Below the pieces are notes generated by a model. The model made no database searches, had not been told where the DNA came from, and worked only from the letters and a program-made list of their open reading frames with translations. The translations under genes and the position numbers were made by a program. From Reclinomonas americana ATCC 50394 (Eukaryota), in the NCBI GenBank assembly GCA_048213135.1, contig PS015017.1:91349-127130 (forward strand): a DNA stretch of 35,782 bases. The letters are read 5' to 3'. Shown piece by piece: positions 2,374 through 35,782 of this stretch; the stretch's first letter is position 1, and each line of letters opens with the position of its first letter.

Positions 2374-5300
2374 CAACAACAAGGAGGAAGCGCCTCACGC
2401 GCTCCACCGGCTACTGTGTCGGCTGCGTTGCCGCCACCGCCTGTGCCGGCTGGTGGCGCCGCCGAGCTGGCGCGCGTGCGCGAGGAGCTGGAGCGGCTGC
2501 GCAAGACCGAGGCCGAGGCTGTCAAAGTACGCACCGCACTGGAAGGTACTGCGCGCTGCGTTCCTTCTCTTTTGCGGCGGTGTCTCTCACATTACTTGTA
2601 TTGCAATCGCAGCGGAGCTCGATGCGCTGCGCATCAAGTCCGTCATGTCGGCTGAGGAGCTGGAGGAGGCGCAGAGTTGCGTGCGTCGGCTGCCGATCTC
2701 GTTTTCACTGCCTCCTTCTCATTCTCGTGGTGTGTCGTGCAGCTGCCGCATCTAAGGCCAAGGGACGTGCGGAGGCTCTGGAGGCCGAAGCCAGCCGGTT
2801 GCGCGCCGAGCTGGCCACCGCCAAGCAGGAGGCCGCCGATGCCGAGGAGCAGGCTGAACGATCACAGGTGCTGGTGGAGAAGGCCCGTCTGGAGGTCAAG
2901 ATGCAGTCGGAAAAGTTGGCTGCGGCGCAGGCCGAGGTCGCCGCCGCCAAGAGCGTGGCCACATCCGCACCCGCAGCATCTGGCTCAACGGCCCCGGCTC
3001 CAGCGACGTCCTCGTCGTCTGCAGCCTCGCCCGCTCTGNNNNNNNNNNNNNNNNNNNNNNNNNNNNNNNNNNNNNNNNNNNNNNNNNNNNNNNNNNNNNN
3101 NNNNNNNNNNCGAGATGATGTGCTGGCCAGCTTGGAAAATGTGCTCGCCTCGGAGGAGTCGGAAGAGCAGACAAAGGAACAGCTGGCGGAGGCACTGAAG
3201 GAGCTCGAAACCGTCAAGGCCACCGCAGCTGCATACAAGAGTCTCGTTCAAAGCGCTCCACTTTGCCGCGTTTCCCCTCCACTCACTGACGTGTGCTTCT
3301 GCAGAGCAACTGGATGCGGCTGCTGCCGCTGGATCACCAGCAGGAAGCAGCAAGCCTGGCGAGAAAGCGCGTGTTGCTGGCACCAATCGGTCGCCAAGCT
3401 CATCCTCGTCTTCCTCGTCGTCCTCCATCGAGAGCCGCAGTTGCGCCTGCGTATGTCAATATTTCGTCTTTGAATAACGGTGGCTCACACCACGCTTTTC
3501 ACAGAGGCCGAAAGTCGGGTTCGTGCCCTGGAGGAGCAGACCGCCAACTTGGCGGCCGAGATTGCCGAACTACGCAGTTGCGCACGACCGCTTACACTAT
3601 CGTCGCGTCTCACTGGCTCACTGCGTTGTTTTTCTCCCCTCGGCGCAGAGGCCAAGGAGGCTGCCGACCAGCGAGCTCGCTCGGCGGAGGCGGCACTGGA
3701 GGCCGCTCGCGACGAGACAGCCAAGGTGGAGACACCGGTGAAGGATCGCCAGCGCGAGGAGCTGGCCAGGCAAGTGGAGCAGCTGTCGTCGCAACTCAGC
3801 GACTTGACGAGTTTCGTAAGAGAGAAGCGTCTTGTCGCAGACGTTGTGTCTCATGTGTCCACTGCAGAGGAACGCGACGAAATGGAGAGCGACCTCAGTG
3901 TGCTGCAGGACACGATTGAGAAGACCAAGGCCATGAATGAGAGTTGCGCCACTTGCTCGTCTCCCTCGTTGTTCGTGCGCTCACTGCTGCTGCTGCTGCT
4001 GCAATCACGCAGAGGACAAGGCCAGGTTGACAGCAGCTGTCAAGACCGAGACCGACCGCGCCACGCAGTTGGAGGCCGATAACACCAGTTGCGTGCGCCA
4101 GCATGACACACTGTCAATCGTCGACAACTGTTTCTCACCAACAATCTTTGTTCCTCACAGAATTGCGTGACAACGTTGCGTCGTTGACGACTCAACTCGA
4201 GGCGTTGCGAGAGGAAGCAGCCAGTTGCGTGCACCACGATTGTGCACCCGTTCAACACGAGGCATCCACTGACATGCATATTGTGTGCAGAAAAGGACCA
4301 GTCGCTGCGAGCGGCCTCGGCCGAGCACTCGGAATTGGAGCAGCTGCAGGGTCTGTCAGCTCTTTTCGATTTTGTCGTGTACGTCAAGCAGCTCACGTGT
4401 GATCCTTGCAGAGGAAAAGTCGCGCCTGCAGTCTCGTCTGCAGTCGCTGGAGGCGGCTCACGAGGAGGCACAGAACGAGTTGGCGGCTGCCCAAGGTTCT
4501 CACTGCGCACTGTTCATTGTTTGCCTCTCCTTCTCTCAAAGTTGAGCCACACAGAATTCAAGGGCGCACTGGCGAGCGAGCTGGAGGAGGCCATCGCCAC
4601 TAGCGTGCAACTGGAAGCCGACAATGCCGTTCTCAAGGTCCAACTGGAGAACGCCGAGAACGAGAGCCGCAGCCGCCACGAGGCCTTGCAGAGTTGCTTC
4701 CAGCCACCCACTTGCGCGTCCGCCTCTTCTTCACTAACTCTGCGTGTGTTTTTGCGTCGCACAGGAGACTTGGAGGCCGGCAAGAGCAGACTGGCCGACG
4801 CCGAGCGCAGTGCCGCAGAGAAGCTCGAATCCGCGCACCGTGAGGTTTGTTGCTCACACGCGCACAGTTGTGTCTCTCACACACGCATGCATTCCTCAAC
4901 TCGTACGGTGCGTAGCGTGCCGCCGTGGAGCAGCAAAAGGCCGCCAACGAGGCGCAATTGCACGATGGTGAGAGTTTGTTGTCTCCATTGTTCCCTGGCC
5001 CTGTTGTCAATCCTCACCCCGTGTGAAAACAGCCAAGACGCGCATCGAGCAGCTGTCGTCGGAGAACGCGAATCTCGGCCAGCGAGTGACCGAAGCCCAG
5101 CAAGCGCGTGCGCAAGTGGAGCAGCAACTGGCAGCCGCCCAGCAGAGCCTTACCGAGAGTCGCCAGCGAGAGGCCGTGCTGTCCAAGCAGGTCAGCGAGT
5201 GGGAGCAGCGTTGCAAGGATGCCGAGGCCCGTGGTGCGTCGGCCGCGGCCACCATCCAGCAGCTGCAGGCGCAGTTGCAGCAGGCCGAGGCACAGCTGAA

Positions 5301-7041
5301 GGCCCAGATTGCTGACCTGCAGACGCGTCTTGGTGCTGCCGAGTCGCGCGGTGAGAAGCTGTCGACCCGCCTCGGTGGTTTGCGCAAGTCCATGCAGGTG
5401 TGTGTGTTTGTGCACGATGCCTTTCTTCTTTGGCTGTTCACCTCTCACGGTACACATTTGTTGCAGGCGGCCGCCGATGTCGCACAGCGTGAGTCGCGGC
5501 GCGTCAAGGCCGAGCTCGTGCAACTGCGCACCTATGTCGGTGACAAGATGCGCACCAGCCTCGACGACATGTTGCGTGAGACCGCCGAATCCGTGCTCAG
5601 CCGGTGCGGTGAGCTGGTCGAGGAGTACCGAGTGCGCTACCGCGACGAGTGGGTGCTTCGTCGCAAACTCTTCAACTTGGTGCAAGAGCTGCGCGGCAAC
5701 ATCCGCGTGTTCTGTCGTGTGCGCCCGCTGCTGTCGGACGAGGTGGCGGCTCGCGTCGAAGAGTGCTTCACATTCCCGGCCGAGGGCGAATGCGTGCTCA
5801 GCGACCCACGTCGCGGTCGCTCCAGTCGCTTCGAGTTCGACACGGTCTTTGGTCCTGCGTCCACGCAGGAGGAGGTGTTTGCCATGGTGGAGCCACTCGT
5901 GACCTCGGTGCTCGACGGCTACAACGTGTGCATCTTTGCGTATGGTGCGCACATTTGTCCTGCCTGCACCACTCCCTTCTTGCTCACTCACTCATCCAAC
6001 GTATCAGGTCAAACTGGCTCCGGTAAGACATACACCATGGAGGGCACGCCGTCGAATCAGGGTATTTCCTACCGCACGGTGCACGAGCTGTTCAAGGTGG
6101 TGGAGGCGCGCAAGCCCGACCTGAACTACGTGTTGGAGGTGTCGGTGTACGAGATCTACATGGAGCAGATCTTTGACCTGCTGGTGGCCCCGGTGCCGCC
6201 TGGTCGCGGTGGTCGCCCGCCGGCCAATGCTCCGCGCCGCGACAAGTTGCGTCACGTCGCGCCAAGCAAAGACTCCACAAGAATAGACGCTGACTGTATC
6301 CCTCTCTTTCCCTTCAGGCTTGACGTGCGGCTCGGTGGCAAGGACGGCGTGTACGTGGAGGGCATGACGCGCCGCGAGGTGCGCACACTCGACGAAGTAC
6401 TGTCGACTCTCGCCGAGGGACACTCGAATCGCTCGGTGGCCGAGACCAAGGCCAACGAGCACTCGTCTCGCTCGCACCTGCTGCTTTCGATTTACGTCAA
6501 TGGCGGCAACCACGTGACGGGTGAGACGGTGCGCGGCAAGCTGCACCTGGTCGATCTGGCCGGCTCGGAGCGCATTTCGCAGACCAACGCCACTGGCGAT
6601 CGTCTGGAGGAGGCCAAGAGCATCAACAAGAGCCTATCGGCACTGGGCGACACGATTCAGGCGCTCATCAACAAGAGCCGTGCCACAGCAGCTGCGGGTG
6701 GTGACTCGACGGCCGCCGCCGGCGGCCACGTGCCCTACCGCAACTCCAAGCTGACCTTTTTGCTGCACGACTCACTGGGTGGCAACGCCAAGACGGTGAT
6801 GATCGTGAACGCCAGTCCGACGCTCGAGGACTCGGCCGAGTCGCTCTCCTCGCTGCAGTTCGCCTCGCGCGTGCGCAAGGTCGAGCTCGGCAAGGCCAAG
6901 AAGAACGTCATGAAGGGCTCCGCGTCCACTCCGGTCCTGGAGGATCTGCCGGTTGGCGGAGCCAGCGGCAGCGGCTCCAACCCATCCAGCGCACGCGGAT
7001 CGGCACCCAACAGTGCCCGCGGTCAGCCGCCCGCGCAATGA
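2374..7041 (+). CDS. Kinesin-14 (C-terminal motor, KIFC3-like) with a long coiled-coil stalk; 5' end in the gap; 17 visible introns
   Basis: Neck RRKLFNLVQELRGNIRVFCRVRP, P-loop AY(G|)QTGSGKT after removing intron 5945-6007, switch I NEHSSRSH, switch II LVDLAGSER, HVPYRNSKLT; stop TGA 7039-7041. Introns: 2546-2612, 2676-2742, 3241-3304, 3440-3504, 3577-3648, 3811-3867, 3943-4012, 4088-4160, 4224-4290, 4351-4411, 4496-4554, 4693-4764, 4845-4915, 4968-5032, 5398-5466, 5945-6007, 6246-6317. Confidence 0.95.
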
Positions 7042-7093
7042 ATGAACGTCGCCACTCAATGTTGTCCTTCGCGTCTGTGTAACGTCGTCTTCA

Positions 7094-8447
7094 ATGGCAG
7101 ACAGAGAAGTGCGTGACACAGTATGGGAGGGCCACATTCCGGTGGAGTTCTCACTCGCGGGGCGTGAGCTCACCACCATGGACGTGCCTCCACGCGTCTT
7201 TGTTGCGGACATGTCGTCGCTCTCTCTCTCTCACAGGAAAACACCTTCTGACAACACACATGTGCAGAGGATGGTGCCCCGCACAGCCTACATGCCCATG
7301 TTGGCCGAGGAGCTGCTGGAGATCTTTGAGCGGTTCACACTGCGCAGCTCACCAGCGTGGTTTGACGTCGACTTTATCCCCCTCAAATGGTGCGCAGATT
7401 GATCACACACACACCCTCACTCTCTCTCTGTTGCTCTCACACTCACTCACCCTCGTACACAGGCAACTTCCGGTCGGTGTCTTGTTCGACTGTCATGCAA
7501 CAACGTCGTTGCTGCAAGGTGGGGGCGGAGGAGGCGAGGATGCTATCGATCGGCCGTGGCAGGTGACAGTACACTTCCAGAACTTTCCGCGCGACGAGCT
7601 CGTCGACATGCGCAGTGTCAAGCAGCCGACACCAGGCACAGCATCTCCGCCCGCCACCTCCTCCTCTGCTGCGCCGAGTGCGAGTGAGCGAGCAAACTTG
7701 CATGCAGAGTCGATGGAGTGGTGCTTCTTCAACCTGCTCAAGGAGGTGAGGCAGAGATAGAGGGAAGAGTGTGTGGAGGCGGAACGGGAAGAGTCACCGC
7801 GACGCTGCTACAGAGCTTCCAGATGCGGTATCGATCGACAAGAGCGTTGCAGACGCTGTCCAAGCCCGACGAGACGCGTCTGTGGCAGGCCGTGCAGCAG
7901 AAGAACATGAGTGGGTACTTTGAGATTGTGGATCGCCTCTGCACCGAGGCCGACAACCGTGCCAGTGCCGCCGACAAACAGTGGGCGTTTTTCCCGGTCA
8001 AGGCGGTCATCTTGTCGAGCACGGCGCGTGCGGATGGTCGAGGCGATATCAGGCTACGAACTGTCGTGTGCCCTTACAGAGGTGCAGCCTGCAGCCTGCG
8101 TGTACTCGTGCGCGACCTTTCTGTGTGTTCCCTCCATCGGCTGATCTGCGTACATGTGTGTGTGTGCAACTGCAGCCGACTTGACGTTTGAGGAGTTTGC
8201 TCCGCTGGCGTGGGAGGTGCTGACGGAGGAGAGACCAGACCTGCGAGCCGTGGATGAGTCGGATGGTGTACCGCTGGAACTGGCGCACGTGTTGCGCGTT
8301 GATTCACAACGTCACGCCTGGCAGCTGGTGGTGCACGGCGTGACGGTGGATCCCGACACACCACTCCGTTGGCTCTGCACCAACATGAGCAGCGCAGATG
8401 GCACGCTGTATGTCGTCGCACAACCGCGATCGCCTGTCGCCACCTGA
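7094..8447 (+). CDS. ATG5: Autophagy protein 5; exons 7094-7201, 7268-7389, 7463-7745, 7814-8081, 8176-8447
   Basis: MADREVRDTVWEGHIPV, PRTAYMP, PLKWQLPVGVLFD, PWQVTVHFQNFP, FFNLLKE (position of the ATG12-acceptor Lys), HGVTVDPDTPLRWLCTNMSSADGTLYVV. Confidence 0.95.
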
Positions 8448-8735: not shown

Positions 8736-11700
8736 ATGCAAGAGGATCCAGTGGGAGACGACACTGGGGGTGGCTCTGTGGGCTCAGGTCTCGGTGGGGG
8801 TGGATTGGGCGGTGGTGGCGGTGGTGGCGAAGCGCTGCTGGGCGGCTTCTCGCTGAGAGAGGTCGAGTCGTGGTGCGAAACGCTCTTCCAACATCACGAC
8901 GACGATCGACGTGCGGAGGCCAGTGTGCGCCTGGCGCCTCTTGCACAGCCTGGAAAAGAGGCACTGTTGTCATTGCACGCCCTGTTGGATCGAAGTGCGG
9001 CGCCGTATGCGCAGTACTTTGCGGCGACCACGTTGCAGAGACTGGTCACTGCGCACTGGAACACACTGTCGACGCATGAGAGACTGGATCTGAGTTGCGT
9101 GGCCTTGCGTGTGTGTGTGCGTGTGTGCGTGTGTGTGTGTGAGAAAAAACGCGTGCAATGTCGTACTTGACACGCGCGCGCGCGAACACACAGCTCTCTT
9201 TCTCCTCGTCTGCGTGTGGTGGTGTCTTGCATGTGAGGCGTGCTGCGCTGTGAGCACCTGCACAAGTTGTGCTTTCCGTACACATCGAGAGTTGTCCTCG
9301 TCGTCGTGGCTCTTCTTCATCATCATCATCCAACGCGATCTTGTGTGTGTGTATGTGAATGCAGAGAACTACGTGGTGCAGTACTTGGCGCAACGCGGGC
9401 CGCATCTCGTGCAGTTCGTGGTCACCGCAGTCATCCTCCTGTTGTGCCGCATGGCCAAGGTGAGAGGCAGGCGGTCGAGTCGCATCGCACATGTTTTCGT
9501 TGTGCAGTGCTGACTGTGTCGATGGCGATGATGGTGTGTGATAGTTTGGATGGAACGAGGCCGAGGAGTACAGGCAGCTGCCGGCGCAGATGAACGAGTT
9601 CATGGGTGTCTCGGTCGATCTCATGGTCATTGCGCTGCAGAGTTGCGCTGCAATTTGGGTACTCTCATACGCCCTCGCTCTTCCGCTCACCCGCCCATCT
9701 CGTCTCAGCGCTCTCCGAGCTTATTCGTGAGATGAACACGGTCAACACGCGCCGAACGCTGACGCAACATCGCAAGGTGGCCATCCACTTCCGTGACTCG
9801 GCACTGCTGCCGATCTTTGAGATGACGCTCGACACGCTGAAGCGCTGTGTGGCCGGCGTGCTGGGAGTGAACGGCGGTGCGTTTCACTCTTTTTGAAACA
9901 CTCATTCACACGCACACGCACACCTCTGCCCGCTCACATGAATGGTGATTTTGTTGGGGGACCAGACAAGGACGACCAAGTACGTGGAGCGGCGCTGGGA
10001 CTGGCGCTGCAGTGTCTTTCGTTTGACTTTGTCGGCATCTTCCCGGACGACTCGTCGGAGGACATTGGCACTGTGCAGATGCCGGTCACGTGGCGGCCCA
10101 TCATTCAGGACCTGTCCAATCTGCATCTGTTCTTCGACTTGTATCACACCTCGCGGCCGTCGCGCTGCCAACAAGCACTGCAGTGCGTGGTGCAACTGGC
10201 CAGCGTGCGACGCTCGCTATTCCAGACGGAGCCGGACCGCAAGAACTTCCTCAGCCAGCTGCTGCTGAAGACCAACCAGATCATGCAGAGCCGTGTTGGA
10301 CTGGACGACGAGAACGTGTTTCACGAACTGAGTCGTCTGCTGGCTCGCATCAAGGGCAACTTCCAATTGACTGGTTAGCACTGTCGTGCACTCCCCCACT
10401 TCCTCTTTGCTGTCCGTACCTTCCCAGTTGTGCCGTGCATTGACACTCCTCGCTCTGTCTCTCTGCAGAAATCGTCAGCACCGACGAGTACGATCAGTGG
10501 GCCAGCCTTGCTGCCGATCTCACCATCGAGTCGTTCCGCTCGTGGCAGTGGGGCGCCAACGCCGACTACTACTTGATGAACTTCTGGAGTCGCATGGTGG
10601 CCACGCTACCGTACCTGAAGGGCCAAAAGCCATCCATGCTTGATACATATGTGCCGGAGGTGGCGATGCTCGGTTTTCAGTCGTCTCCGTCTTTGATGCA
10701 CAACCTCACTCGTGCCGTCGTCGCACAGATTGTCAAAGCGTACGTGGAGTCACGATTGGACATGGCCCGCGCAGTGTGTCACGACGACCAGTTCGACAAC
10801 ATTTTGCGCGAGGAGGAGCGCCTGCTTACCCAGTTGGATGGCTTCCCGCAGCTTGTCCGCACGTTCTACGACAAGATTGCTCCGTACCTGGCCATGATCA
10901 TGGATCCGCTGATTGAGAATTACTCGCGGGCCGTGCTCATGCTCCAGCAGGGCGACTTGTCGGTGGTGCCGGACACGGAGATTTTCGAATCGCAGCTGGC
11001 GTGGATGGTGTGTGTGTGTACACTCTGCACAAACAACGACTTGTGTGCATTCGCACTTGCTCACATGCTGCTGGTTTTTTTATTGCGCAGGTGTACTTGG
11101 TGGGCTGTGTGATTGGCCACCGTCTGTCGGCGGCCACGTCGGAAGCGCTGGACCTGTATGACGGCGAGCTGGCCTCTCGTGTGATGCAATGCACACAGAT
11201 TGTGCAGGCCCGCATTGAGTTTTGCGCGCAAATGGTTCGCTGATTGCATATGCGCGCGCGTGCCCGCATAATTGACTAACGTGGTCTCTGACGGCAGACC
11301 GAGCGTGTGAACACGGAGCCGCTGGAGATGCTCGAGTGTGGATTCGTGTACTTTTTCCAGCAGTTCCGCCGCGTTTACATTGGCGAGCAAGCCATGACGT
11401 CGTCCAAGGTGTGCCTTTTTTGTGGCACGCGCGCGTGTTGCAGTTGTGCTGCAGTTCTCACGCTTCATGTACAGGTGTACTCCAAGCTGACGGAGTTGTT
11501 GGACCTGCAAGATCACCTGGCCGTTCTCAACATCATCGTCACCAAGCTGGCCAGCAACCTTAAGGTGTGGGCCGACAAAGACCGCATCATCAAGAACACG
11601 CTGGCGCTGCTGCACGATCTGTCTATTGGCTACAGCAGCGGCAAGCTGTTGCTGAAGCTCGACGCCGTCCAATTCATGATCCAGAACCATGCAGTTGTGT

Positions 11701-13264
11701 CTCCAAGAGCCCCCTAAGTGCGGCCTTTTTTCCCCCTCACGGTGTGCTGACTTCTTCTTTCTCCTCCTCCTCCTCCTCCTCCTCCTCCTCCTCCTCCTCC
11801 TCCTCCTCCCTCGCACACAGAACGAAGCGCTTGGCTTTGTCAGCAGCGTGCGCAATATGAAGTATCGCATGACGTTCTACGCGGCCCTCACCAAGCTGCT
11901 GGTCACCGAGCCGGATGCGGAGAACAAGTTCCAGGCCTTCCTGCAACCGCTACACGACGCCTCCATGGAGCTCCAGGACGCGCTGGCCAATGGCAACCAC
12001 ATGGATCCGGCCGTGCGCATGGCGCTGGTGGGCTGGATGCGCGACACACGAGGTGTGCTGTCGGCGCTGCTCAACCGCCGCAACTACAACATGTTTTTCG
12101 AGTGGATCTATCCGCAACACATGCCACTGCTGGAGGGTGCGGTGGAGCTGTGCTGCGATTCGGTGGAGGTCAGCATTGCGTTGCTGAAGCTGCTGTCGGA
12201 GTTGGTGCACAATCGCTCCGACCGCATCCTCTTTGATTCGTCGTCGCCGAACGGCATCCTCCTGTTCAAGCACACCAGCAAGATCCTGGTCACGTACGGC
12301 GACCGCACCTCCCGCCTGGCAGTCTACCAAGACGCCTACAAGGAGAAGTACCGAGGCATCTGTGCCTGCTTGGCCACCCTGTCGCGCTCGCTCAACGGCA
12401 ACTACTGCAATTTTGGCGTCTTCCAGTTGTACAATGATCCGGCTCTGGTGGATGCACTGCACGTGTGCATTACGCTGGCGCTCTCGATTCCGCTGAATGA
12501 TTTGATGGTGTGTGTGCTTGTGGGCGCTGCGTGCAATACGTCTGGTTGACTGACTGCGCGCGGGATACAGTCGTACCCGAAAGTTTGCAAGGCCTACTTC
12601 CACGTGCTACAGACGCTGTTCCACAAGTACATGAACATCGTGGTCATGTTCGACACCAACATGTTCCTGCAGCTGCTGCAGTCGATTGAGGTGAGTGTGG
12701 CTGCTCTGCTGCCGTGCTGCGTGTGACTGCTGCTCACAAATCCAGAAAAAACAACGAGCAGGAGGGCATTCAGAGCATCGACACGAGCATCTCCAGCCAG
12801 AGCTGTGTGGCGCTCGACCACGTGGTCACCTTCTTCTGGAAGGAGAGCCTGAAGGGCAGCGAATACTTCCAGAAGATGCAGGCGCACCTGTCCATGCAGC
12901 CGGATCTGATGCCGCGCATGCTGGCTGTGTTGCTCAACATGATTCTGTACGAGGAGAGCAACAACCAGTGGTCCCTGTCACGGCCGTTGCTCACCCTCAT
13001 TGTCACCTACACCGAGGTTGGTTGCGCGCCTTTGGTATCTTGGCAGTTGTGCATTGGTAACAAATACTCATGTCGTTGCCGCAGGACTTTGATCGTCTGA
13101 AGGCCGAGGTGGCGGCGACGCTGGATGGTGAGCGGCAAAATCTGCTCATGCAGGCGTTTGATACGCTGATGGACAAGGTGTTGCCGAACTTGGACCCGAG
13201 AAACCGCGACGTGTTTACGCAAAACATGACCTTCTTCCGAACAACAGTCAAGGGCTTCTTGTAG
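8736..13264 (+). CDS. XPO7: Exportin-7 / RanBP16-like importin-beta family receptor; 13 introns; Gly-rich N-terminal extension
   Basis: LDRSAAPYAQYFAA, LTQHRKVAIHFRD, CLSFDFVGIFPDDSSEDIGTVQMPVTWR, LASVRRSLF, HELSRLLARIK, QQFRRVYIGEQ, FDSSSPNGILLF, GNYCNFGVFQLYND, NQWSLSRPLL, NRDVFTQN; stop TAG 13262-13264. The start codon is less certain. Confidence 0.95.
11761..11808 (+). repeat. (CTC)n microsatellite inside an XPO7 intron
   Basis: Pure ctc repeat within intron 11694-11820. Confidence 0.95.
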
Positions 13265-14197
13265 CTGTGGCGTCTCTCGTCTCGTATGTGCATGGTTGCT
13301 GGTGCAGTGAGATTTGCCCGCTACCATTGATTATTGAATGAAGAAGAAGAAAAACAAGCAAGTGTGAGTCTTGGTGGTGGAGAATGCGATTGAAAAAATG
13401 GACGCGATTAATCAACCACAGAAGCATCACGATTACCGCCAACATGTGTACAAGAGACAGAGAGGTCAAGGCAAAATAAGAGCCAAAAAACAGGAAAAAT
13501 AAGAAAGCTATCGCGCACCTGCACCCACGCACAGCGAATGCGAGGATGCGTTTCTTGGCCCTTCTCCCTCCACACCGCTCTTCCGATCGCCACAGACCGC
13601 GCCACCCAGTAACACGACACGCACACACACACACAACAGAGGAAAATATACGAAACACACGCATGCACACCACTCAAGGAGAGACATCAAGGAACAGGAA
13701 ACACACACACACACAAGCAAGACAAGACGAGTAGAAAACCGAGGCAAGAGAGAGAAAAGTAGTTGTAAGCTGTAGGAGAGGGGGAACCTCACATCCGACG
13801 CGGAGGAACGGCCACCCAGCATACATGCAAGGCAGCCATCACGCGCGGGGCTTGCCGCAGCGTCGACACCCTTCGCCAACCCGTCTCACCAAAATCCACG
13901 CGACAAGCGACACGGATGGAGAGAGACGAGGGGGAAAAGCGAGAGACACAGACACAGGCACACACACATACACACACTCTTGACGTGAGAGAGGGGGGGG
14001 GGGAGCGCAACAACGTGGAAAAAGAAGAGAGCGAGAGANNNNNNNNNNNNNNNNNNNNNNNNNNNNNNNNNNNNNNNNNNNNNNNNNNNNNNNNNNNNNN
14101 NNNNNNNNNNNNNNNNNNNNNNNNNNNNNNNNNNNNNNNNNNNNNNNNNNNNNNNNNNNNNNNNNNNNNNNNNNNNNNNNNNNNNNNNNNNNNNNNN

Positions 14198-14764
14198 ACG
14201 GACAGTTCCACGACCTGCTCCGCCTGCTGCGACTCGGTGGCTTCCACCCGAGGTGCGTCTTGTGTTTCTCCCTCTATCCCTCTCCTTTCTCTCCCTCTCC
14301 CTCTCTCTCTCTCTGCTCACGTGGAGGCAACTGCCGGCCTTCTGCAGAGCAACTACTTGTTCCTGGGAGACTACGTCGACCGCGGACGGCAGAGCATCGA
14401 AACCATTTGCTTGGTGTTGGCGTACAAGATCAAGTATCCGGAAAACTTCTTCTGCTTGCGAGGCAACCACGAGAGCCAGGCCATTTGCCGAATCTACGGC
14501 TTCTACGAAGAATGTGCGTGTTGTTGTGCGTGGCCTGCCCCTTTCCCATCTACTTCCTCCTCACGTGCTCTTCTCGCACGCGAACAGGCCGACGACGGTA
14601 CTCGGTCAGGCTGTGGAAGAGCTTTTGCAGTTGCTTCGACTGCCTGCCAGTGGCGGCGGTGATTGAGGACAAAATCTTTTGCGTGCACGGCGGCTTGTCG
14701 CCAGACCTGCACTCGCTCGACGACATTGTGACCATTCGGCGTCCCACCGACGTGCCAGAAATGG
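14198..14764 (+). CDS. PPP1C: Ser/Thr protein phosphatase PP1-type catalytic subunit; partial, both ends in gaps
   Basis: [80 protein letters not shown]; introns 14253-14347 and 14514-14587, further donor at 14765. Confidence 0.93.
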
Positions 14765-14809
14765 GTACGTGTGCTGCGCGTGCCCCCCCNNNNNNNNNNN
14801 NNNNNNNNN

Positions 14810-17800
14810 GGATGAAGCACAACTGGAACCGGTGCTCCTCTTCCATCGTCATCGTCGTCGTCTTCATCCTCCTCATCCTCATCATCCTCATCCTGGTCCT
14901 CCAACTCCTCCTGCTCCACGTCGCTCTCATCACTGTCAGCAACCGGAGCAGAAGGCGGCGGCACTTCAGGCATCCTCTTCTCCACCTGCTCCTCCTCCTT
15001 CTCCTGCTGCTCCTCCTCGTCCTCATCCTCCTCACTGCTCTCATCATCAGAGACCACCTCAGGTCGTGAGAATGGCGCAGTGGGTGCGACGGCCAGCGGC
15101 ACATCGTCCTTCTCCTCCTCCTGCTCCACGACCACTTCGTCGACTCCCTCGTTTTCGCCCACAACCTCGACCTCCTCCTGCATATGTTGCTGCTGCTGCT
15201 GTTGCAGTTGTGGCGCAGCTGCTAATCTGTGCTCCACGGCAGGTGCTGCAGCTGACTTGGCCGACGGTGGATGCGGCTGCTCGTCGTCATCGTCATCCTC
15301 GTCGCCAAGTGAGCCATGCGAGAGTGCATCGTCCTCCACCGGTGACGACGGCTCCGCTTCGTGAATGTCGTCGGTTGACGGGGGCGGCGAAGGCGGTCCC
15401 GGCTCACGCGGTGCGCGCGGAAGGGTCGCCGAGGCCGGCAGTGTCGGAGGCGAGCCAACAGGCAGACTGTTGGAACGCATCAACGGCAACGACAGCTGCG
15501 GCGGACCGCCGGGTTGCTTGCCCGGCGGTGGCGGGGGTGGACGACTGGCGGGTGGTGGCGGGACGGCAGAGCGAGGTGACGAGGGTGGCGACGGTGAATG
15601 CGAGGAGGGTGGTGTGGTGGAGAGCGTACGCCCGGGTGGAGGCGGTGGCGGTCGTGAGGCCGGTGGCGGCGGGAGCGGTCCGCCACTGCGCGGCGACGTC
15701 GGCGGCGACTCGAGTGGTTTCTTGGACAGCGATGGANNNNNNNNNNNNNNNNNNNNTCCACAGCAGACAGCTGCAGAGGCGGCACCACCTGCGGTGACGG
15801 CTTTGTCGCTGGCGGTGCTGATGGGGTTTCCTGCTTGGCGGGGGGAGCCGGAATGGCGGCCGACGGTGGCTTCGGCTGCTCCTGGCGATCCAAGTGCAGC
15901 AGCACAGCCGACAGACTCATCATCAGGCCGCTGATGCGCTCGTGGCGCTGCCGAGCCTCCACATTGTAGGGATCGTTGGCCATCTCGTCCTGCAGCGATG
16001 CAGCCGATTGTGACAAGGCCTGTCGCGCCACTGTCAACAAATGCGGCGGCAACGATGTCGGATGCACGCTGATCAAATCGCCCAGCACATCAATGGCATC
16101 GTCCACCAGCCACGTTCCCAGACTGCCGACCGAACCCTCCGATCCTCCTCTGTCGGCACTCTCCGGCAGCAGCCACGCACACAATCGACCAATCAGCATC
16201 TGCATGTCTGTCGAATCGATCGTCCACAAGCCTTGGGAGCCTGCCGAGAGGGATAGTGCAAGGTGAGGGAGAACACAGATTGCCCCCCCTGTGTGCACTG
16301 CTCACCAATGCGCTTGAGGAAGCGATTCAAAAGCACGTCATCGCGTGGATGCTCGAGTGCGAGGTGCAGTGCCTCGCCAGCACGTCCCGACGCCGCCAGT
16401 CGCAACATGCGGTCCCACAAGCTCTCCGACTTTTCGTTACTCGACACTGCGGATTTTTTCTTGGAGTGAGCGACGGGGACACAATGCAGTGCCATAATGC
16501 AGCGCCGAGGACGCACCGAGCATGTTGGCAGAGAACACTTGGAAGCGACCACGAGTGCGCCCTTTGCCGGTGAGGCCACCCGAGTGGAGTGGCGATGTGG
16601 AGCGTGGAGAGCGTGGTGATCGTGGAGACTGGTCGCCGGGTGAAATCACACCACTGCGACCGGGTGACACTGGTGGCCGCTGTGCGCCAGCTGCACTGTC
16701 ACGTGGTGTGGTGGGCATACTGTTGGTGGCCGACGGCGGTGGCGTGAGNNNNNNNNNNNNNNNNNNNNNNNNNNNNNNNNNNNNNNNNNNNNNNNNNNNN
16801 NNNNNNNNNNNNNNNNNNNNNNNNNNNNNNNNNNNNNNNNNNNNNNNNNNNNNNNNNNNNNNNNNNNNNNNNNNNNNNNNNNNNNNNNNNNNNNNNNNNN
16901 NNNNNNNNNNNNNNNNNNNNNNNNNNNNNNNNNNNNNNNNNNNNNNNNNNNNNNNNNNNNNNNNNNNNNNNNNNNNNNNNNNNNNNNNNNNNNNNNNNNN
17001 NNNNNNNNNNNNNNNNNNNNNNNNNNNNNNNNNNNNNNNNNNNNNNNNNNNNNNNNNNNNNNNNNNNNNNNNNNNNNNNNNNNNNNNNNNNNNNNNNNNN
17101 NNNNNNNNNNNNNNNNNNNNNNNNNNNNNNNNNNNNNNNNNNNNNNNNNCCCCGAACGTGCCTTGGTCGCCATGAGGCTCGCCCTCTGCCTCTCCCGAAG
17201 ATCACGCTCCGTGGGCACACCCGACAGCTGCAACACTCGCTCCTCTAATGCCTCCACGCGCGCAGTCAACAGGTTGATGGTGCGCACGCTGTTGGATAGG
17301 AGCTCATTCACATTGACCTCGAACTGGCGTTGTGACTGCGGCAGCGGGATTTCAGCACAAGAAGGCAGATTGAAAACGAAACACACACGCACAAACACAC
17401 ACCTCAGCCATGCGTGTCACTTGCGAGACAATCTCCTCCAGTCGCTTCTCTAATCGCTCCGAGCGAATGTCACTCACAGTGGGCGACCGAGCAGTGTCTT
17501 GTCCGCCCTCGTCGGTGGCCGTGATTTCCAGTGTGGCCAGCTGCTGCTGTCGTTGCTGTTGCTGCTGCTGCTGTTGCTGCAGCTGCTCGATGGCGCGCTT
17601 GCGAGCGGCGGACACTGCCTCCACCGACGGCACTCGGACAACGCGAGGGGCTTCGGCGGCACGCTTGGCGATCCGACGAGCCGAGATTCGCACGGCATCG
17701 ACGCTGCTCAGAATCGGTGTACCCGACAGACCCAGCACCACGCTCCGCGTGGCACCGTTGCCGCGGGGACTGTGGTTGCCGTTGGCGGTTGTTGGTGAAT

Positions 17801-18822
17801 CGCGATCACTGCTGGGCGAGGTGTAGGTCGTCGAGCTGCTGGGCGAGTGGCCTCGTATCCTCATCACTTGTGGCTGGAACTTGGTCGCCTCGCTTGCCCG
17901 CGGCGACAACCGATGCGTCACAGAAGCGGCTGGAGGCGACTCAAGGTGCAGCGCTGGTAGTAGTGGCGAGACGGCAGCAGAAGCAGTACCATTCGACGAC
18001 GACGCCGATCCGACACGAACCACCAGCGGACCACCGCCAGCACCACCACCGTCGGTCGGTGCCACGGCTTCACCTTCGCTGTCGGCTGCAGGTTGCGAAT
18101 ACAATTCTTTCAGTCAATCACCATGCAGTGCAACCAGGAAAGCGCAGGCGGCGGCACGCGCAACTGTCTCCATTGGCATCAAACAACTCATTGTCGCCGT
18201 CGCTTCCGTCGTCATCGTCGTCCTCAATGATACCAGCCGCGATTCGATCCTCGCGCGACATGAGCGGCGGCGGTGATCGAGCACTGGCGGCAGCCGAAGC
18301 GGACGAAGCAGGTGATCCCGTGTCGGTGCGCGACGAAGGCGGCACACGCTTTGGCGAGCGTGGTGGCTTGGGAGATGGCCGATTCAGCGCGCGATCGACA
18401 GGCGACGGACACACCGACTCGAATGTCGACAGCGCCTCTTCGGCTTCCTCGCGCACCGGACGCATCTTGTCACGTTTGGCCACCGCCAGTGTGCCAATGG
18501 CCTCCGAGCGCAATGCAGTGGCCTGCGCCACCACGGTAGGCGGCACTGGGAAATTACCGTGAACCTCCACTCGTCGTTCGCGCCGAGCTGCACTATCGAC
18601 GTTAGACAACAACAAGAGCAACGAGACAGTGCTCGGCGATGAGCAGTGGTGACGCAACCGGCTCCACGAGGCGACGCCAACTCCTCAATGTCGGCCACAC
18701 CTCGCATCGGCGGCGCCAGATGGCGCGACGTCATGCCCAGGAAGCGAACGGCGGCTCGCCGTGATGTCCAACTGATGGACTTGCGCACCTCGGCCGACGC
18801 CAGCGAGATCCACTGCGTTGTC

Positions 18823-20442: not shown

Positions 20443-20523
20443 TGTGAGTGAACGATTGTTGGGACAGACGTGCCAGCGAGCACTGTCCTCCCGCCACTTT
20501 CCGCACCAAAGGGTTTGCTGTGA
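20443..20523. promoter_or_regulatory. Putative 81-bp bidirectional promoter/5'UTR region between the SPR2-like and primase genes
   Basis: Divergent ATGs at 20442 (-) and 20524 (+). Confidence 0.6.
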
Positions 20524-22152: not shown

Positions 22153-22167
22153 ATGTCAATTGTGTGT

Positions 22168-25100
22168 TCATACTTCCGTCATGCTCAGTAACCGCTCCAG
22201 TTCACACAGCGTGGCGCCGGCCACAGGCAGACAGGCGCGAATGCCCCAGTTTGGCACCAACTGCACCACCTCGTCGAGCAGTCGCGCCGTCGGCACCTTG
22301 CATGACTCGGCGGCAAAGTGTCGCTCCGCGGCCGCTCGCTCCACGGTCACACTGTGCAGCGCCGACTCGCTGACCGCACCCGACGCGCGGCCGACCACCA
22401 CTGGATCGCGGAAGAGTGTGCCCGTCAACGGACACGTGTACATGGCGCGCAACTCGGCCGCCCACATGCGGGTCTCCTCCAACGCCTCAGCAATCATACA
22501 GAACCGTGCCGAATCCGCGTGCAGCACACACTGCTCCGGTCTTAACACTACGCCCGTGCACGGATGTGTGGGTGGCACGCGCGAGGTGCGACAGGCGGCC
22601 AACCACCGCTCCGCCACACCTCGCTCAAACGCCTCGCCATCACCCTTGCCGCTGCGACTGTGCACCGGTGGCCCGAGGGTGACGGGATCGCGCATGACAA
22701 GTCCCGACACCGGGCACAGCATAATCGAGCGCAGTCGCCGCAAGAGCGCACCATGCTGTCGAATACGTGAGGAGCAGCGAGGGGAGAGAGATTGAGATTA
22801 GGGCTGTCAAGTCTCACCTCGGCCTGCACGCCAGCCAGCACCTCCCGAGAGACGCGGTCACGCACGCACAACTGCAGTCGCGGCGTCTGCAGTGGAAAGG
22901 CGGCCAGGTGGTCCTTTTTGGCGGTCTCCCAGTCCGAGGCCGTAAAGATGCGCTGCGCCACGCCGTGCGGATCAATGTACTCGAGCGCGACGCCTGCATC
23001 GACCCAGTGCGGATGAGCGGCATACAGCTGAATGCGCTCCCACAACGTGGTGAGGTCGGTGGCCACGTCAATGGCAATCTCGTAGGCCTCGTCGCCCACG
23101 GCCACACGAATCCCCAAGTGCACGGGATCTGCAAGCGACGAAGAAGACTTTTTTTGTGGCGACGCTCCCACTTGCAGACAGAGAGACAAGACATGCGTAC
23201 CCGAGTCCGCCAACAGAATGGGCGACGGCATGCGGAAGCTGGTGACGGCCACCGCCTGCAGCTTATCCACACCATCCCACTCGTGCACATCGTCGACCTC
23301 GACCACGCGCAGCTCGACAGTGTATCGGCAACCGGGTCGCACGCCATTCACCGTCAGCTGTCCGTACCGTTGGCCGACCGCAAACACATCGACAGGCGTG
23401 CGCAGCAGCGCCGGTTCGAAGGCCTCGTTCGACGCCGACGGAACGGCAGCCGGCAACACCACGCAGTCGAGCGGCAACGGGTTCTCACGCAGGTACTTGG
23501 CGAGCCAGTCCGGCAGAGAGCGATTGCCGCCGGGCGCCTGCCATGTGATGACGGCCTCGCGACCATCGTCGAGACCCTGCACACCGAGTCGCACCACCGG
23601 CGACCCACCGTCCCTCCAGTCGTCGCCAACGCTGTCGCCGCAGTCGACACTCAGCCAGTCGCCCGGCAGCCACGTGTCTACCTCCGTGGCGGAGCACACC
23701 GACACGCGGAGTCGGTGTGTGCCAGCGCCCAGTCCGACCACCAGCAGACCCTCGACTCGTGCGTCGTCCGTGGGCACGCGCATCACACTGTTGGTAAGCG
23801 GCACAGCAGCACAAGACGTCTCGCAGAAGCGCTCCACGCGAACAGGCTTCTCCGGCGAGGCATTCACCAGCAGCAGCGTCACGAAAAAGGCAGTCGGCGG
23901 CACCTCCGACAGCAGTCCGACCAGAGCTGCGACGACAGAGAGAGAGAGAGAGAGAGGGAGAGTAGGGATGAGTGCGAGAATGTCAAGCGAGCTGCCATAC
24001 GCATACCTTCGGGAACCGCTTGAACCGACACTGCACCAGCCGATCCGCCGACCACCAGGTGCGTGCCGTCGGGTGACCACGCTGCACTGTTGAGATGCTC
24101 ACCACGGCCGGCGACCGCAGCGCGCATCGTCCCGAGTGGCTCGCCACTGCCCGTCCACCACAGACGCACAACGCCATCGGCGGAGGCCGAGGCCAGCAGC
24201 AGCGGTTGATGAGGCCGAAACGCCAACGCTCGCACCCTCCCGTCGTGCCCATTGTGCAGCGTCCGCACACACCTCCCAGTGCTCCCGTCCCACAGTCGCA
24301 CTGCATGATCGAAAGACCCCGTGGCCACCCACTGCTCGCCACTCCATGCGACGCACGAGACGCCCGCCGGATGCACCAGGCGAAACAGAAACACCCACGT
24401 CTCCCCACCATCGTCGCCACTGCCACTGCCAGTGGGCTTGGCGGCAAACACATGTGCATTGCCGTCGGCCGAGGCCGTGGCCAATCGCCGTGATGCCGAG
24501 TTCGAGAGAGCCACCGCGAGTACCCAGTCACTGTGCGTAGGAGTGAGAGTGGCAGGTCGCTTGTCGTCGCCCGCAGAGAGGCGCATGCAGGCCACAGAAC
24601 CGTCTTGAGCGCCCGAGACAACCCACTCGCCACCACCAGCCACACAGCACACAGATGCAGTGTCTGTGTGGAAGCTGAATGAGGGAGGGGCGGTGGAGAA
24701 GGGGGTGTGGGGAGTGTCGTCACGCAACGTGCACGCGACCAGCGATGGAGTGTGAGACCGGTGTGTGCATCCCTCACAGTCACCGTGCATGCGGGTGCGG
24801 CGGAGCCGGCGATGAGCAGGCGCGGGTAGCTGCATGCAGAGGGTAATTAGAAGGAGGCACATGTGTGTGTGTGTGTATGTGTGTGTGTGAGTGGGTGTGT
24901 GCGCGCCACCTTGCATGCCAGGCGACGCAGCGCGCCGTGCACTTGTATTCTTCGCGCCACTGCAGTCGACGACTGCCACCGTGGCGATCGAGTTGGAGGA
25001 TGGACACGAGGCCGCCACGGTCGACACTGGCCACCAGTGTGTGGCCGTCGAGCTCCACCGGGCTCACGGCCTGCATCTGCTGTGGAGGTGGTGGTGGGGG

Positions 25101-26080: not shown

Positions 26081-28110
26081 ATGAGTGCGCCTCCTCCTTC
26101 ACTGACGACACTGGCTGAGATCGCTGCGGTGACAACAACACCCTCGTCTCCCAAGATGACGTCACCCAAGAAAGGTGCGTGACATGAGAGAGAGAGAGAG
26201 AGAGAGTGCGTGCGTGCGTGTGTGTTTGTGTTGGGGGATGTCATGGCCGCGAACAACATACTCTCTCTCTCTCTCTCTTTCATTCCCCCACTTTCTTCAT
26301 TCTTTGTTGATGTCACACGCGCACACATGTTTGTGTGTGCGTGCATGAGTAACCATCACCTTTGTTTTCTTGTTTTAAAGAAATAATCTTTGCGCTCACA
26401 TGTGTGTGTGCACACAGAACCCACAGCCAATGGCGGTGACTTGCTCGCCTCCATGAAGCCAGTGGAGCCCTCATCATTTGCTGTTGCGTGTGCCTTTTTT
26501 TCGCACATTATGTTTTTTTCGTTGATATCGCCCGCCACCGCCAACAAATGTTCTCACTCCAATTGTTTATTGCAGCCGGCACCGCCTTCTTCTTCGGCGC
26601 CCATGTTGATGGCTTCGCATTCGTATCCGGTTGGTCATGGCAATGCTTCACCACCGCACCATCAGCATCATCACCAGCATCAGCAGCAGCAGCAGCAGCA
26701 GCACCAGCTGCATCATCATCAGCTTCTGCACTCATCGTCGTCGTCATCGTCAAGCGTACCCACGTCGAATTTTGCGATGAATTCCACCAACGGAAATGGT
26801 GTTGGTGGCTCGGGTGGCAGCTCAGCGGCGGACGCAGCGCAGTCGTGGGAAATGTGGAAGCCGATTGTTGAAGTTGCGTTTGCTGTTGTTTTGTGAAGAT
26901 GCAATTCGCTTCCTGTTGTTCTTTTGTTGTTGTTTTCGTACGCTTTGCTTTGGCACGCTGGAGAGCTGAGTAACACACACGCACGCACGCACACGCTGGT
27001 CGATCTTTGCCCTCTTGTTGTTGTGCTTGGGGAGTGAGCGTGGGAGCCGACCTCTGTCATTCTCCACACTGCTCGTCTTGGGTGGGGAGATGCTTGCTGT
27101 CTTCTGTGCTGTAATGGCAGTCAGTGATGTGCGACTCTGCGAAGTATTCGCATATGCTGTGTGACCACTGATGTGCTCTTTCTGTGAGTTCGCACCACGA
27201 GATCTTCTGTGTGTGTGAGAGATGGGCGAGAAACAGCAGTTCCAGACGATCGGCATTTTCTGTCAGTGCGCGTGAGTGTAGCTTGTGTGAGCAAGAGGGT
27301 GCGTGTGCGCGTGTGTGTGCGTGTGGAGGTGGAGAAGGAGCACGACACTTGCCCTCTTGGTGAATGATGCACCGAGTGCGCATTCTTGTCGCATCTGGGG
27401 CCAATCGGCGCAAGTATTACATTGATGCTGGTCACCACACTTTCTAAAATTCCCTGAGAGAGCGGACCGTCTCGCTTTTCATTCTCTCTGCATTCACGCA
27501 CACGCACTCTCCCTGTCTCTCCCTCTCGTGCACGACGCGGCACTCGGGCACGCCTGCGCTGTGTTAAGATGTTCACTCATTTGACGTACGAACAGCAATA
27601 TCGCCCGCAGCTGCACACGCTGCCGCAGTTGCCGCTCTCGGCACTGCCAATACCTCTACCGTCGGTGACACCCGTCAGTATGGCTGGCCGCTCGAACTCT
27701 GGCGGCCTGCCGTCGCCAACGCCGTCGTCGTCAACCTCCTCGGTCACCTCGTCCACCGCAATTCATCGCTCTCCCGGTCCGTCTCGCCATCACCACCTGC
27801 TACAGCAGTCGCTGCTCGGTGGCGGAAGCGGTGCCGCCCTCAGTGCCAGCAACAACGCCAGTGGCAGCGTGCATGCACGTATGTCAGACTTCTCCAGTGG
27901 TGCGCCCACGTCGCCACCGTCGGCAATGACCACCAACACCACGTCGACGGCGCCTGGCTCCAGCATGTTTGGACCGCTGGACGGCACCTCATACGCCCAC
28001 GTGCTCATGTCGCTGCGCTCGTCGCCCGTGCAGCAGGCTGCGGCTGCGGCAGCGTTGGCCGCCACAGCCATGGACCACCACGGGCACCACCAGTCGCACC
28101 ACCATCAACA

Positions 28111-32730: not shown

Positions 32731-33896
32731 ATGTCTGCGAGCGATAGCAACGCCTCTTCTTCTTCATCATCGTCGTCGTCTTCAAAGATGCCACACTGGA
32801 CGATGCCCGAGACCGCTGACGGTGCGTTTGTCGACACCGGAGTGCTGGTGTGGAACTCGCTGACGCGCACCAAGGTGAGCGAGCTCGGTTGAACGCACAC
32901 TGAGCCACGATCGGGATGACTAACCTTATGCGCACACGCACACAGGTACCACTTCGCAAACCGAAGGACAGCCCCCTGCGCTGGTACTCGTGCGGACCGA
33001 CAGTGTACAACATTTCCCACTTGGGTCATGCACGGTGAGTCGTCGCTGCGTAGTCTCTCTGCGCGATTCGTCTGGCGTCTCCCTCTAACACACGCACACA
33101 CACAACAGCAACTATGTGTCGCTGGACATTCTGCGCCGAGTGCTGGAGGACTACTTTGGCATCCCCACTCTCTACGTGATGAACATTACCGATGTCGACG
33201 ACAAGATCATCATCGCGGCTGCGCACAAGCACCTGGTGGACCTGGTCGCCGACGTTTCCGAGCGGAGTGGCGCGGAATCGATGGCCGTCAGTCAGGCGCT
33301 GGAGGATGCCCAGGCGGTGCTGGACCGAGAGGACGAGTGGCGCCAAGTGTCGAAGACACACTCGGCGGCGCAGGCGCTCAAGCAGGCCGCACTTGCCGCC
33401 GGCATCATCAGTGCGGACGAGGCTGCATCGGAGCCAGACTTCGAGGGCTACGCCCGTCACTACGAGCAAGACTTTCTGGAGGACATGGCCGCCCTGGGAG
33501 TTGCGCGAGGCCAGCTGCATGCAGCAGCACTTGTGTCAGTTGCATTTTCCTCACACAAATGCTGGCTACCCACAGGTGCGACCGGCTCACGCCATGCCGC
33601 GCGTCTCGGAGCACGTACCTGAGATCATCGCCTTCATCGAGCGCATCATCCGCAACGGCTTCGCGTACGCCACCGCCACTGGATCCGTGTACTTTGACAC
33701 CAGCGCCTACCTGGCCTCCGGACACGACCACCCGAAGCTGGCACCGGAGCGCCGCGATGACCTGGAGCTGATGGCCGAGGCTGAGGGTGCTCTCAGCAGT
33801 ATCGGATCGGCGGAGAAGAAGGCCACGGCGGACTTTGCCTTGTGGAAGGCATCGAAGCCAGGCGAGCCGTCCTGGAGCTCGCCGTGGGGACGCGGT

Positions 33897-35426: not shown

Positions 35427-35568
35427 GCTGTGTGTGCGTGTGAGAACAATGTAAAGCAATCATGGGCGTTTGTTTACGACATGGTGTACCCGTCGCGAGG
35501 TTAGGTGGTGAAGTGTTGAATCCGAGCAGGACACAAGCGCATCTTCCGTCTTGTTTTCAATCGTCACA

Positions 35569-35677
35569 ATGAGCACGGAAGAGAAGAGCACACTGTTCAC
35601 CATTGTCGCCGGCGCAGTTGCACTGCTGCCGATCATCAGCGCGGGAGCCTACTCGATCTTTGGCCAGGCGCACAAGA
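35569..35677 (+). CDS. First exon of a probable signal-anchor/membrane protein (partial)
   Basis: cacaATG context, MSTEEKSTLFTIVAGAVALLPIISAGAYSIFGQAHK hydrophobic stretch, then an A|GTTGCG donor at 35678 and pyrimidine-rich intron-like sequence. Confidence 0.55.
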
Positions 35678-35782
35678 GTTGCGCGCGCACACACGCACAC
35701 GTCAGCACTACCATTGCGAATCTTTTCCTCTCTTTCTCTCTTTGTGTCTCATTCGCACGCACACTTGAGAGAGAAACACACA

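Follow-up and report, generated by a model that had tools for sequence, protein, structure and literature searches.

The stretch of DNA analysed here (the window) covers 35.8 kb of the genome of Reclinomonas americana ATCC 50394 (contig PS015017.1, positions 91,349 to 127,130 of the forward strand; all coordinates below count from its first nucleotide), has a G+C content of about 58%, and is both compact and rich in introns, whose 5′ splice sites (donors) are the subject of this report. Genes within it were named by Pfam, PDB and homologue searches, and those whose introns carry the argument encode kinesin-14 (2645-7041, + strand), ATG5 (7094-8447, +), exportin-7 (8736-13264, +), the small subunit of DNA primase (20524-22152, +), a WD40/U-box protein (− strand) and cysteinyl-tRNA synthetase (CysRS, +). 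Throughout, a slash outside brackets marks the cut, with −1 as the last exonic and +1 as the first intronic position. A first-pass annotation of the window, made by reading the letters alone, had singled out 17 putative introns that start with GTTGCG; its coordinates, strands and preceding bases all proved correct (A at −1 in 13 cases, T in two, at 7202 and 26483, C in one, at 24728, and G in one, at 18658). Judged by their sequences, the donors of the window fall into two discrete classes, G/GT(G/T/A)NG(T/C), hereafter class I, and A/GTTG(C/T)G(T/C), hereafter class II, the latter accounting for about a quarter to a third of the predicted introns and occurring in at least seven genes.

Introns were delimited, where homologues permitted, by a junction test. 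Briefly, wherever two tblastn blocks of a homologue left a gap, all frame-keeping GT/GC...AG pairs were enumerated and scored by comparing the joined peptide with the homologue. For exportin-7, the homologue search gave one useful reference, a 1069-aa protein on a 3.5-kb contig (P0001), and the test fixed 13 introns, three of which open with GTT after an exonic A: A/GTTGCGT at 9094-9364 (271 nt, phase 1; score 90 against 78 for the next solution), A/GTTGCGC at 9642-9708 (67 nt, phase 1; 94 against 83), and the class II variant A/GTTGTGT at 11694-11820 (127 nt, phase 0; 117 against 106). The ten other donors all follow G and read GTGAGA, GTGCGT (our class I reference intron in this gene, 9877-9965, 89 nt), GTTAGC, GTGGCG, GTGTGT (twice), GTTCGC, GTGTGC, GTGAGT and GTTGGT; the GTGGCG donor belongs to an intron at 10660-10728 (G/GTGGCGA, 107 against 96) that combines −1G with +5C and +6G and is a candidate for bulge-type recognition. 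Spliced at these sites, exportin-7 becomes one open frame of 1103 aa that is 61% identical to the reference over 1072 residues.

GTT donors also ranked first in the junction tests of three further genes on the + strand. The CysRS test returned G/GTGAGC, G/GTGAGT, A/GTTGCG, C/GTGCGT and G/GTGAGT, and the A/GTTGCGC intron among them (33500-33575, 76 nt, phase 0) joins DMAALG/VRPAH; its donor came first with two of three homologues (87 against 78 with P0258) and tied with a GC donor for P0238. In the primase gene, compared with a 64% identical protein (P0359), the test gave G/GTGCGT, G/GTGTGT and G/GTACGC together with a class II variant, A/GTTCTGT, at 20621-20698 (78 nt, phase 1; 88 against 73). 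The kinesin motor domain yielded G/GTGCGC at 5945-6007 (63 nt), a class I reference intron that splits FAYG/QTGSGKT and scored 138-143 against 124-129, and, more weakly, A/GTTGCGT at 6246-6317 (72 nt, phase 2), which was the top solution with two of three homologues; the latter appears as an insertion in the PDB kinesin alignment, and the local peptide DKLDVRL matches EKLEIRL of KIFC3. Searching the PDB with the short exons of ATG5 was uninformative, and a Pfam profile was used instead: exon 1 corresponds to positions 1-25 of ATG5_UblA, the profile resumes after an in-frame, class II-like intron, T/GTTGCGG, at 7202-7267 (+, 66 nt), and it crosses a G/GTGCGC intron at 7390 from position 72 to 73. 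The only locus from a metagenome scan, 45% identical, was left out of the evidence. Removal of the introns restores the frame and the similarity to homologues in exportin-7, CysRS, kinesin, primase and ATG5, in line with the first-pass proposal that splicing at the GTTGCG sites recovers conserved protein, which spliced alignment bears out for CysRS and exportin-7. With kinesin and CysRS, the best homologues were only about 50% identical, leaving six introns of the kinesin coiled coil beyond the reach of a homology check. Named hits in these homologue searches were spread over Naegleria, Physarum, green algae, diatoms and kinetoplastids.

Introns were also predicted with a gene finder based on dynamic programming, whose score combines the three-base periodicity of coding sequence, the composition of introns and a profile of the acceptor over 30 nt, and which asks of a donor that it be GT, or GC with a penalty, and nothing more (hereafter, donor-agnostic). 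The exportin-7 introns, though never their donor sequences, served to train its first acceptor and composition models, so that its recovery of 12 of the 13 exportin-7 introns is not independent. Known errors are the donors 5926 (correctly 5945) and 12721 (correctly 12691), 13261, the acceptor of 21813, and 24622, 24777 and 24942. An earlier gene finder that used codon usage only was dropped because it read through in-frame introns; its 35 introns held four of the 17 GTTGCG sites. The donor-agnostic run returned 68 introns, 12 of which start with GTTGCG (2676, 3577, 3943, 4088, 4224, 6246, 9094, 9642, 18164, 18658, 33500 and 35678), against an expectation of 0.5% from intron composition (binomial p = 2e-15). 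It thereby found 12 of the 17 sites, five of them in the kinesin coiled coil and inaccessible to homology, and it also returned the primase variant at 20621.

The coiled-coil part of the kinesin gene holds a series of class II introns on the + strand and in phase 1. The intron A/GTTGCGT at 2676-2742 (67 nt), found in both gene-finder runs, joins MSAEELEEAQ to the coiled-coil frame, and A/GTTGCGC at 3577-3648 (72 nt) is required for the open coiled-coil frame 3505-7041. The gene finder and the reading frame agree on four more: the variant A/GTTTCGT at 3811-3867 (57 nt), A/GTTGCGC at 3943-4012 (70 nt), A/GTTGCGT at 4088-4160 (73 nt) and A/GTTGCGT at 4224-4290 (67 nt). Spliced at the proposed sites, the gene has an unbroken coiled-coil and motor frame over 3505-7041. 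The site at 3440-3504 (A/GTTGCGC, 65 nt) is ambiguous, and the gene finder favours a donor at 3390 with the same acceptor.

Elsewhere the assignments are of graded strength. On the − strand, the donor of an A/GTTGCGC intron at 18079-18164 was chosen in both gene-finder runs, and its acceptor is provisional (intron of 86 nt or 313 nt); G/GTTGCGT at 18588-18658 (71 nt) is a less certain candidate from the gene finder, the first run having chosen a donor at 18667. For C/GTTGCGT at 24664-24728 (65 nt, phase 1) in the WD40/U-box gene, the joined frames WSRA-H-TASVCCVAGGGEWVVSGAQDGSV match the WD40 repeat pattern by eye, again as first proposed; the gene finder chose otherwise. On the + strand, T/GTTGCGT at 26483-26575 (93 nt) is a plausible in-frame intron with a T-rich interior, a TTCTCAC motif and a TTGCAG end, and is without homology support; A/GTTGCGT at 26873-26878 is a candidate donor for which no acceptor was found, the frame stopping seven codons downstream; and A/GTTGCGC at 35678-35683, called by the gene finder near the window end, has an uncertain acceptor, and its intron may leave the window. 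Four of the 17 sites (3440, 26483, 26873 and 35678) should accordingly be read as candidates only, and the existence of class II donors as a real class, as judged from sequence, is nonetheless very probable.

The distribution of the motif itself depends on its flanks. The first-pass annotation had left it to a comparison with base composition whether GTTGCG is overrepresented, and within the window the answer is divided: the bare hexamer is not enriched (46 copies against 40.6 expected), whereas AGTTGCGY is, with 14 copies against 4.37 ± 2.25 expected, a count that none of 100 shuffles reached. Thirteen of these 14 copies are putative donors, and none of the five copies of AGTTGCG followed by G or A is one. 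AGTTGCGY thus marks donors much more reliably than GGTGCG, of whose 66 copies 3 are predicted donors, or GGTGAG, with 5 of 38.

Donor positions were compared within three samples: a validated set of 26 introns with homology or profile support, the 68 donor-agnostic introns, and a curated set of 52 made up of the validated introns plus those gene-finder introns judged sound, from which 23 doubtful gene-finder introns and the four candidate-only sites were removed. The −1A/+3T association that had been noticed by eye is borne out in the first two: T occupies +3 in 6/6 validated introns with −1A compared to 4/20 others (Fisher p = 9e-4), and in 16/17 compared to 10/51 among the donor-agnostic introns (p = 5e-8), where the sole −1A/+3G donor (24942) is probably a gene-finder error. 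Furthermore, −1A excludes +5G (0/6 versus 18/20 validated introns, p = 1.2e-4), and among the donor-agnostic +3T donors, G stands at +6 in 14/16 with −1A and in 1/10 without it (p = 1.6e-4). Other descriptive claims of the first pass held on checking the sequence: the five further A/GT donors are GTCTCG, GTTTCG, GTTGCT, GTTGTG and GTTCTG, and all six of the GTGCG donors that it had listed (5945, 7390, 14253, 20397, 20750 and 26175) follow G.

In the curated set, defining class II by +3T, +5 other than G, and +6G yields 16 introns and leaves 36 in class I. Class I (local forms GTGCGT, GTGAGT and GTGTGT) has G at −1 in 33/36, G20/T8/A5/C3 at +3, G at +5 in 30/36, T20/C12 at +6 and a flat +7. Class II has A at −1 in 13/16, G at +4 in 14/16, C at +5 in 14/16 and T10/C5 at +7. 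Position +3 is unusual in its own right, A being rare there (5/36 class I introns; 1/26 validated introns), with GTACGC and GTATGC as the only +3A donor types, and G and T dominant.

The positions that do not define class II mirror the class I position one nucleotide upstream: −1A (13/16) corresponds to class I −2A (16/36), +4G (14/16) to +3G (20/36), and T or C at +7 (15/16) to T or C at +6 (32/36). Over these three positions, an alignment of the 16 class II with the 36 class I donors shifted by +1 is favoured by 82.7 bits (log-likelihood ratio), and by 42.7 bits when kinesin is left out (nine introns, six genes). An exon-end A replaces G and conservation moves by one position, as is characteristic of shifted-register sites. 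The covariation therefore supports a reading of class II as the same consensus cut one base earlier. The first-pass description of class II as the local consensus shifted by one nucleotide stands in part, in that displacement is seen at −1, +4 and +7; the match to a displaced class I is incomplete, A being found at +5 in 0/16.

Apart from their donors, the two classes look alike. Median intron length is 71 nt in both (curated set), a YTNAY branch-site-like motif lies about 20 nt from the 3′ end (8-50 nt scanned) in 15/16 class II and 33/36 class I introns, and the acceptor is CAG in 16/16 and 33/36, respectively. All 52 curated introns start with GT and end with AG; candidates were enumerated among GT/GC...AG pairs only. 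Local alignment of intron cores revealed no introner-like similarity beyond the splice signals, scores between class II introns (mean 8.1, maximum 17) resembling those of shuffled cores (7.3, maximum 13) and those between class I introns (8.2). Since length, branch motif and acceptor are alike and the interiors unrelated, class II introns appear to be U2-type introns of the ordinary kind rather than mobile-element copies. U12-type introns, which have the donor consensus /RTATCCTT and the branch consensus TCCTTAAC, offer a parallel in being a second, tightly conserved donor class beside a major one; they differ in that class II shares the branch motif, length and CAG end of class I, and the U12-type donor and branch consensus is absent, no such motif occurring in the donor lists of the 68 donor-agnostic and the curated introns.

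Two observations touch on the history of introns in this region. Within the kinesin coiled coil (3505-5032, +), exons of 72, 162, 75, 75, 63, 60, 84, 138, 80 and 58 nt alternate with introns of 57-73 nt, nearly all of them in phase 1 and mostly interrupting a Lys codon (A/AG or A/AA). This chain may reflect an old tandem duplication of exon-intron units or a burst of intron gain; the intron interiors show no similarity. In the primase gene, an ORF on a 4-kb Logan contig (P0358) is 88% identical to the window protein over 161 residues; after ADFLQV it continues into unrelated sequence and then, frame-shifted, into the same exon (window position ~21305, in the exon 20821-21489). From the sequence, a close relative seems to carry a primase intron that is missing from the window, a presence/absence difference between near relatives.

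How might a donor with these properties be recognised? The explanation that we favour, with about even confidence, is that the U1 snRNA serving class I also recognises class II, in a register shifted by one nucleotide. In such a duplex, −1A would pair with U10 of U1 and +1G with C9, +2U would lie unpaired opposite C8, +3U would pair with A7, and +4G, +5C, +6G and the pyrimidine (mostly U) at +7 would pair with U1 positions 6 to 3, the cut still falling before GU because later catalytic steps would fix the site. We infer the involvement of U1, its register and any effect on U6 from the donor sequences, and an altered U6 pairing, in which the +5G that usually serves this contact has moved to +6, is speculation. 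Duplex energies were calculated as a what-if exercise with a U1 whose core is ACGUAC, taken from Mastigamoeba balamuthi and possibly not that of the host. With this assumed U1, the GTTGCG sites form duplexes of −3.6 to −8.4 kcal/mol, compared to −3.5 to −10.9 kcal/mol for validated class I donors, and the lowest-energy duplex sets +1G opposite position 9 in 11/17 GTTGCG sites. No snRNA gene lies in the window, where Rfam searches gave no matches at gathering thresholds.

Several results weigh against a shifted U1 register or limit how far it can be pressed. The favourable energies presuppose a U1 variant that belongs to another organism; for a U1 with the standard 5′ end, the 17 GTTGCG sites give duplexes of only −1.3 to −3.7 kcal/mol and no consistent register. 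T at +3 is also seen after −1G, where +5G is kept (GTTAGC, GTTCGC and GTTGGT in exportin-7). Class II is narrower than a displaced class I would be, in that A is absent at +5 although class I has +4A in 9/36 and there is no equivalent of GTGAG; its −1A is conserved in 81%, against 44% for −2A of class I, and its −2 (C/G) is unlike the A-rich −3 of class I. A single gene, kinesin, holds seven of the 16 class II introns in the curated set, and 13/16 A/GTT introns are in phase 1, so that the sites are not fully independent; the excess of phase 1 would be partly expected, codons that end in A being rare in a G+C-rich genome. The curated set was picked by judgement and not blind, and enumeration in the junction test was restricted to GT/GC...AG boundaries. 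Compared with P0001, the junction residues at 9094 and 9642 are R in the homologue and K and T in the model, and that at 11694 favours the model, so these three residues do not discriminate a cut one base away. A reading with both boundaries one base downstream (TT...AGN) would need arbitrary 3′ ends and would alter the junction residue in 13/16 introns; the three informative residues split two to one, and we judged it implausible.

The tight consensus of class II (+5C in 14/16, no A) resembles what a dedicated complement would select, and a second U1 species complementary to A/GUUGCG, beside one that fits GTGCGY, would let each class pair canonically. Co-evolved pairs of U1 and donor have been described for Archamoebae (Entamoeba, ACAAAC with GUUUGU; M. 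balamuthi, ACGUAC with GUGCGC), and Physarum is said to carry both standard and modified U1 variants, according to the preprint by Roy and Bowser (10.1101/2022.06.08.495308); two predicted donors of the window read GTTTGT, the Entamoeba consensus. Such a scheme requires a second gene and a U1 5′ end altered by two changes or more, and by itself leaves the exact one-base displacement, including T/C at +7, unexplained; we consider it unlikely. The displaced GCGY block is explained just as well if U1 pairs canonically with +1G and +2U and a single U (+2 or +3) bulges before pairing resumes, and one-nucleotide bulges at +2/+3 have been validated in human, as far as the accessible part of Tan et al. 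shows (PMC4856993). With the assumed U1, this is the lowest-energy duplex for G/GTTGCG (18658) and G/GTGGCG (10660). A bulge should keep the pair between −1G and C9, yet class II has −1G in 1/16 and −1A in 13/16, against −1G in 33/36 for class I. Because A replaces G at this position, a shifted rather than a bulged register fits, and bulging as the general rule is quite improbable. The first-pass suggestion of shifted or bulged recognition is supported in part, the scarcity of −1G speaking against a simple bulged U. The two G/GTGGCG donors, 10660 (+, validated) and 24909 (−, by eye), keep −1G and could use a bulged register; GTGGCG was rejected as a third signal, the window holding about 80 copies, common in exons, of which only two are plausible donors.

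Two further explanations do without a shifted or bulged U1 register. The heptamer might be read with little or no U1 pairing, by U6/U5, U1C, a LUC7-type or another protein, its likeness to a shift being partly coincidental. The weak pairing of a standard U1 5′ end in all registers agrees with this, and the accessible portions of the respective sources state that Thecamonas and Mamiellales retain a standard U1 despite +4C donors (10.1101/2022.06.08.495308) and propose non-canonical U6 registers (PMC11162779). That three non-defining positions track the shift argues against it, and we hold it to be very improbable. Finally, class II could be an artefact, made up of wrongly inferred introns or, in the kinesin gene, of a duplicated exon-intron unit or a mobile intron that was copied repeatedly. 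In its favour, a single stretch of coiled coil with short phase-1 exons accounts for seven to nine sites, four of the 17 are candidates only, and the gene finder errs. Homology nevertheless backs class II donors in exportin-7, CysRS, primase, the kinesin motor and ATG5, intron interiors resemble one another no more than shuffled sequences do, and the statistics hold without kinesin, which makes an artefact most improbable. Pairing of U1 with a canonical GTGCG five bases downstream was rejected as a general explanation, GTTGCGTGCG occurring at only 2/17 sites. For the preferred shifted register, the wider consequence would be that this lineage runs its major spliceosome in two registers, with U1, and perhaps U6, one nucleotide off the cut in roughly a quarter of introns, marked by A/GUUGCGY; we advance this tentatively, as somewhat short of an even chance.

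The remaining genes of the window encode a CCCH zinc-finger/VWA protein, a TORTIFOLIA1-like protein, a cysteine dioxygenase and a PP1-type Ser/Thr phosphatase. The last (~13400-15100, +), two blocks of which align to PP1 residues 66-85 and 100-200, includes the G/GTGCGT donor at 14253; the gene finder skipped it in favour of a low-complexity gene on the other strand. By our own gene models, the genes are packed extremely tightly although their introns are many: about 50 nt separate the kinesin stop from the ATG5 start (7041-7094), two divergent start codons lie about 80 nt apart (20442-20524), and two convergent stop codons 16 nt apart (22152-22168). Microsatellites of the types (GT)n, (CT)n or (TGC)n are frequent in introns, for example in the 271-nt intron of exportin-7. 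Nine runs of N interrupt the window (1779-2373, 3039-3110, 14039-14197, 16749-17149 and five runs of 20 N); that at 3039-3110 falls inside the intron/exon region of kinesin and leaves the gene model incomplete at 2950-3240.

Among known systems, the closest parallel is human. The shifted U1 register is experimentally established there (Tan et al. 2016, PMC4856993, citing Roca and Krainer 2009), and the validated non-canonical registers together are estimated there at about 1.5% of human 5′ splice sites, compared to 12 to 17 of about 70 introns here. Shifted-register sites have a GU-initiated U2-type donor with weak canonical complementarity to U1 and pairs moved by one position, as is proposed here for class II, and they share with class II U at +3, the usual +5G at +6, and a cut still placed before GU. 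Human bulge and asymmetric-loop registers, to the extent covered by the same material, likewise displace the downstream block by one base, and may apply to 10660 and 18658, but keep the exon-end G pair where class II has −1A.

The class II consensus predicted for the window is GUUGCGY with a strong −1A; the human shifted-register type reportedly reads AGA/GUUAAGU.

Lineage-wide atypical donors, with +4C or +3U, are found in Archamoebae, and class I GTGCG(T/C) resembles the motif of M. balamuthi, whose genome paper gives 60.7% G+C and 3.4 introns per gene. The Archamoebae differ in having a single consensus in canonical register: the sections available to us of the preprint cited above mention no offset second class, and the words 'bulge' and 'register' are absent from its text. 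The same source attributes strict GTGCG(T/C) donors, the hexamer of class I, to Mamiellales such as Ostreococcus (10.1101/2022.06.08.495308, as available in part), which are intron-poor and have one donor type, in contrast to the window, where two types of donor occur and a single gene has 13 or more introns. For one human donor, pairing with U6 in a non-canonical register has been suggested (PMC11162779). Literature searches, judged largely by titles, found no paper on GTTGCG/GUUGCG as a donor class, and in these searches no report of lineage-wide use of a shifted register was found; a 2026 tunicate paper merely raises the possibility.

Among human genes, U1 registers of the shifted or bulged kind are known but rare, and they matter there for predicting the effects of splice-site mutations. 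If the shifted register proposed here is true, a tight offset donor consensus that serves many introns would show that such registers can become mainstream. It would also offer natural experiments, in the hundreds or thousands, on what sets the cut site once U1 has departed. It would bear on the co-evolution of splice signals and snRNAs, for which the cases documented so far, in Entamoeba and Mastigamoeba, involve changes of a single consensus. In practice, gene finders trained with only one donor model will annotate a quarter of this genome's introns wrongly. For the organism itself, if true, class II would represent a natural, genome-wide uncoupling of 5′ splice-site recognition from the choice of the cut site.

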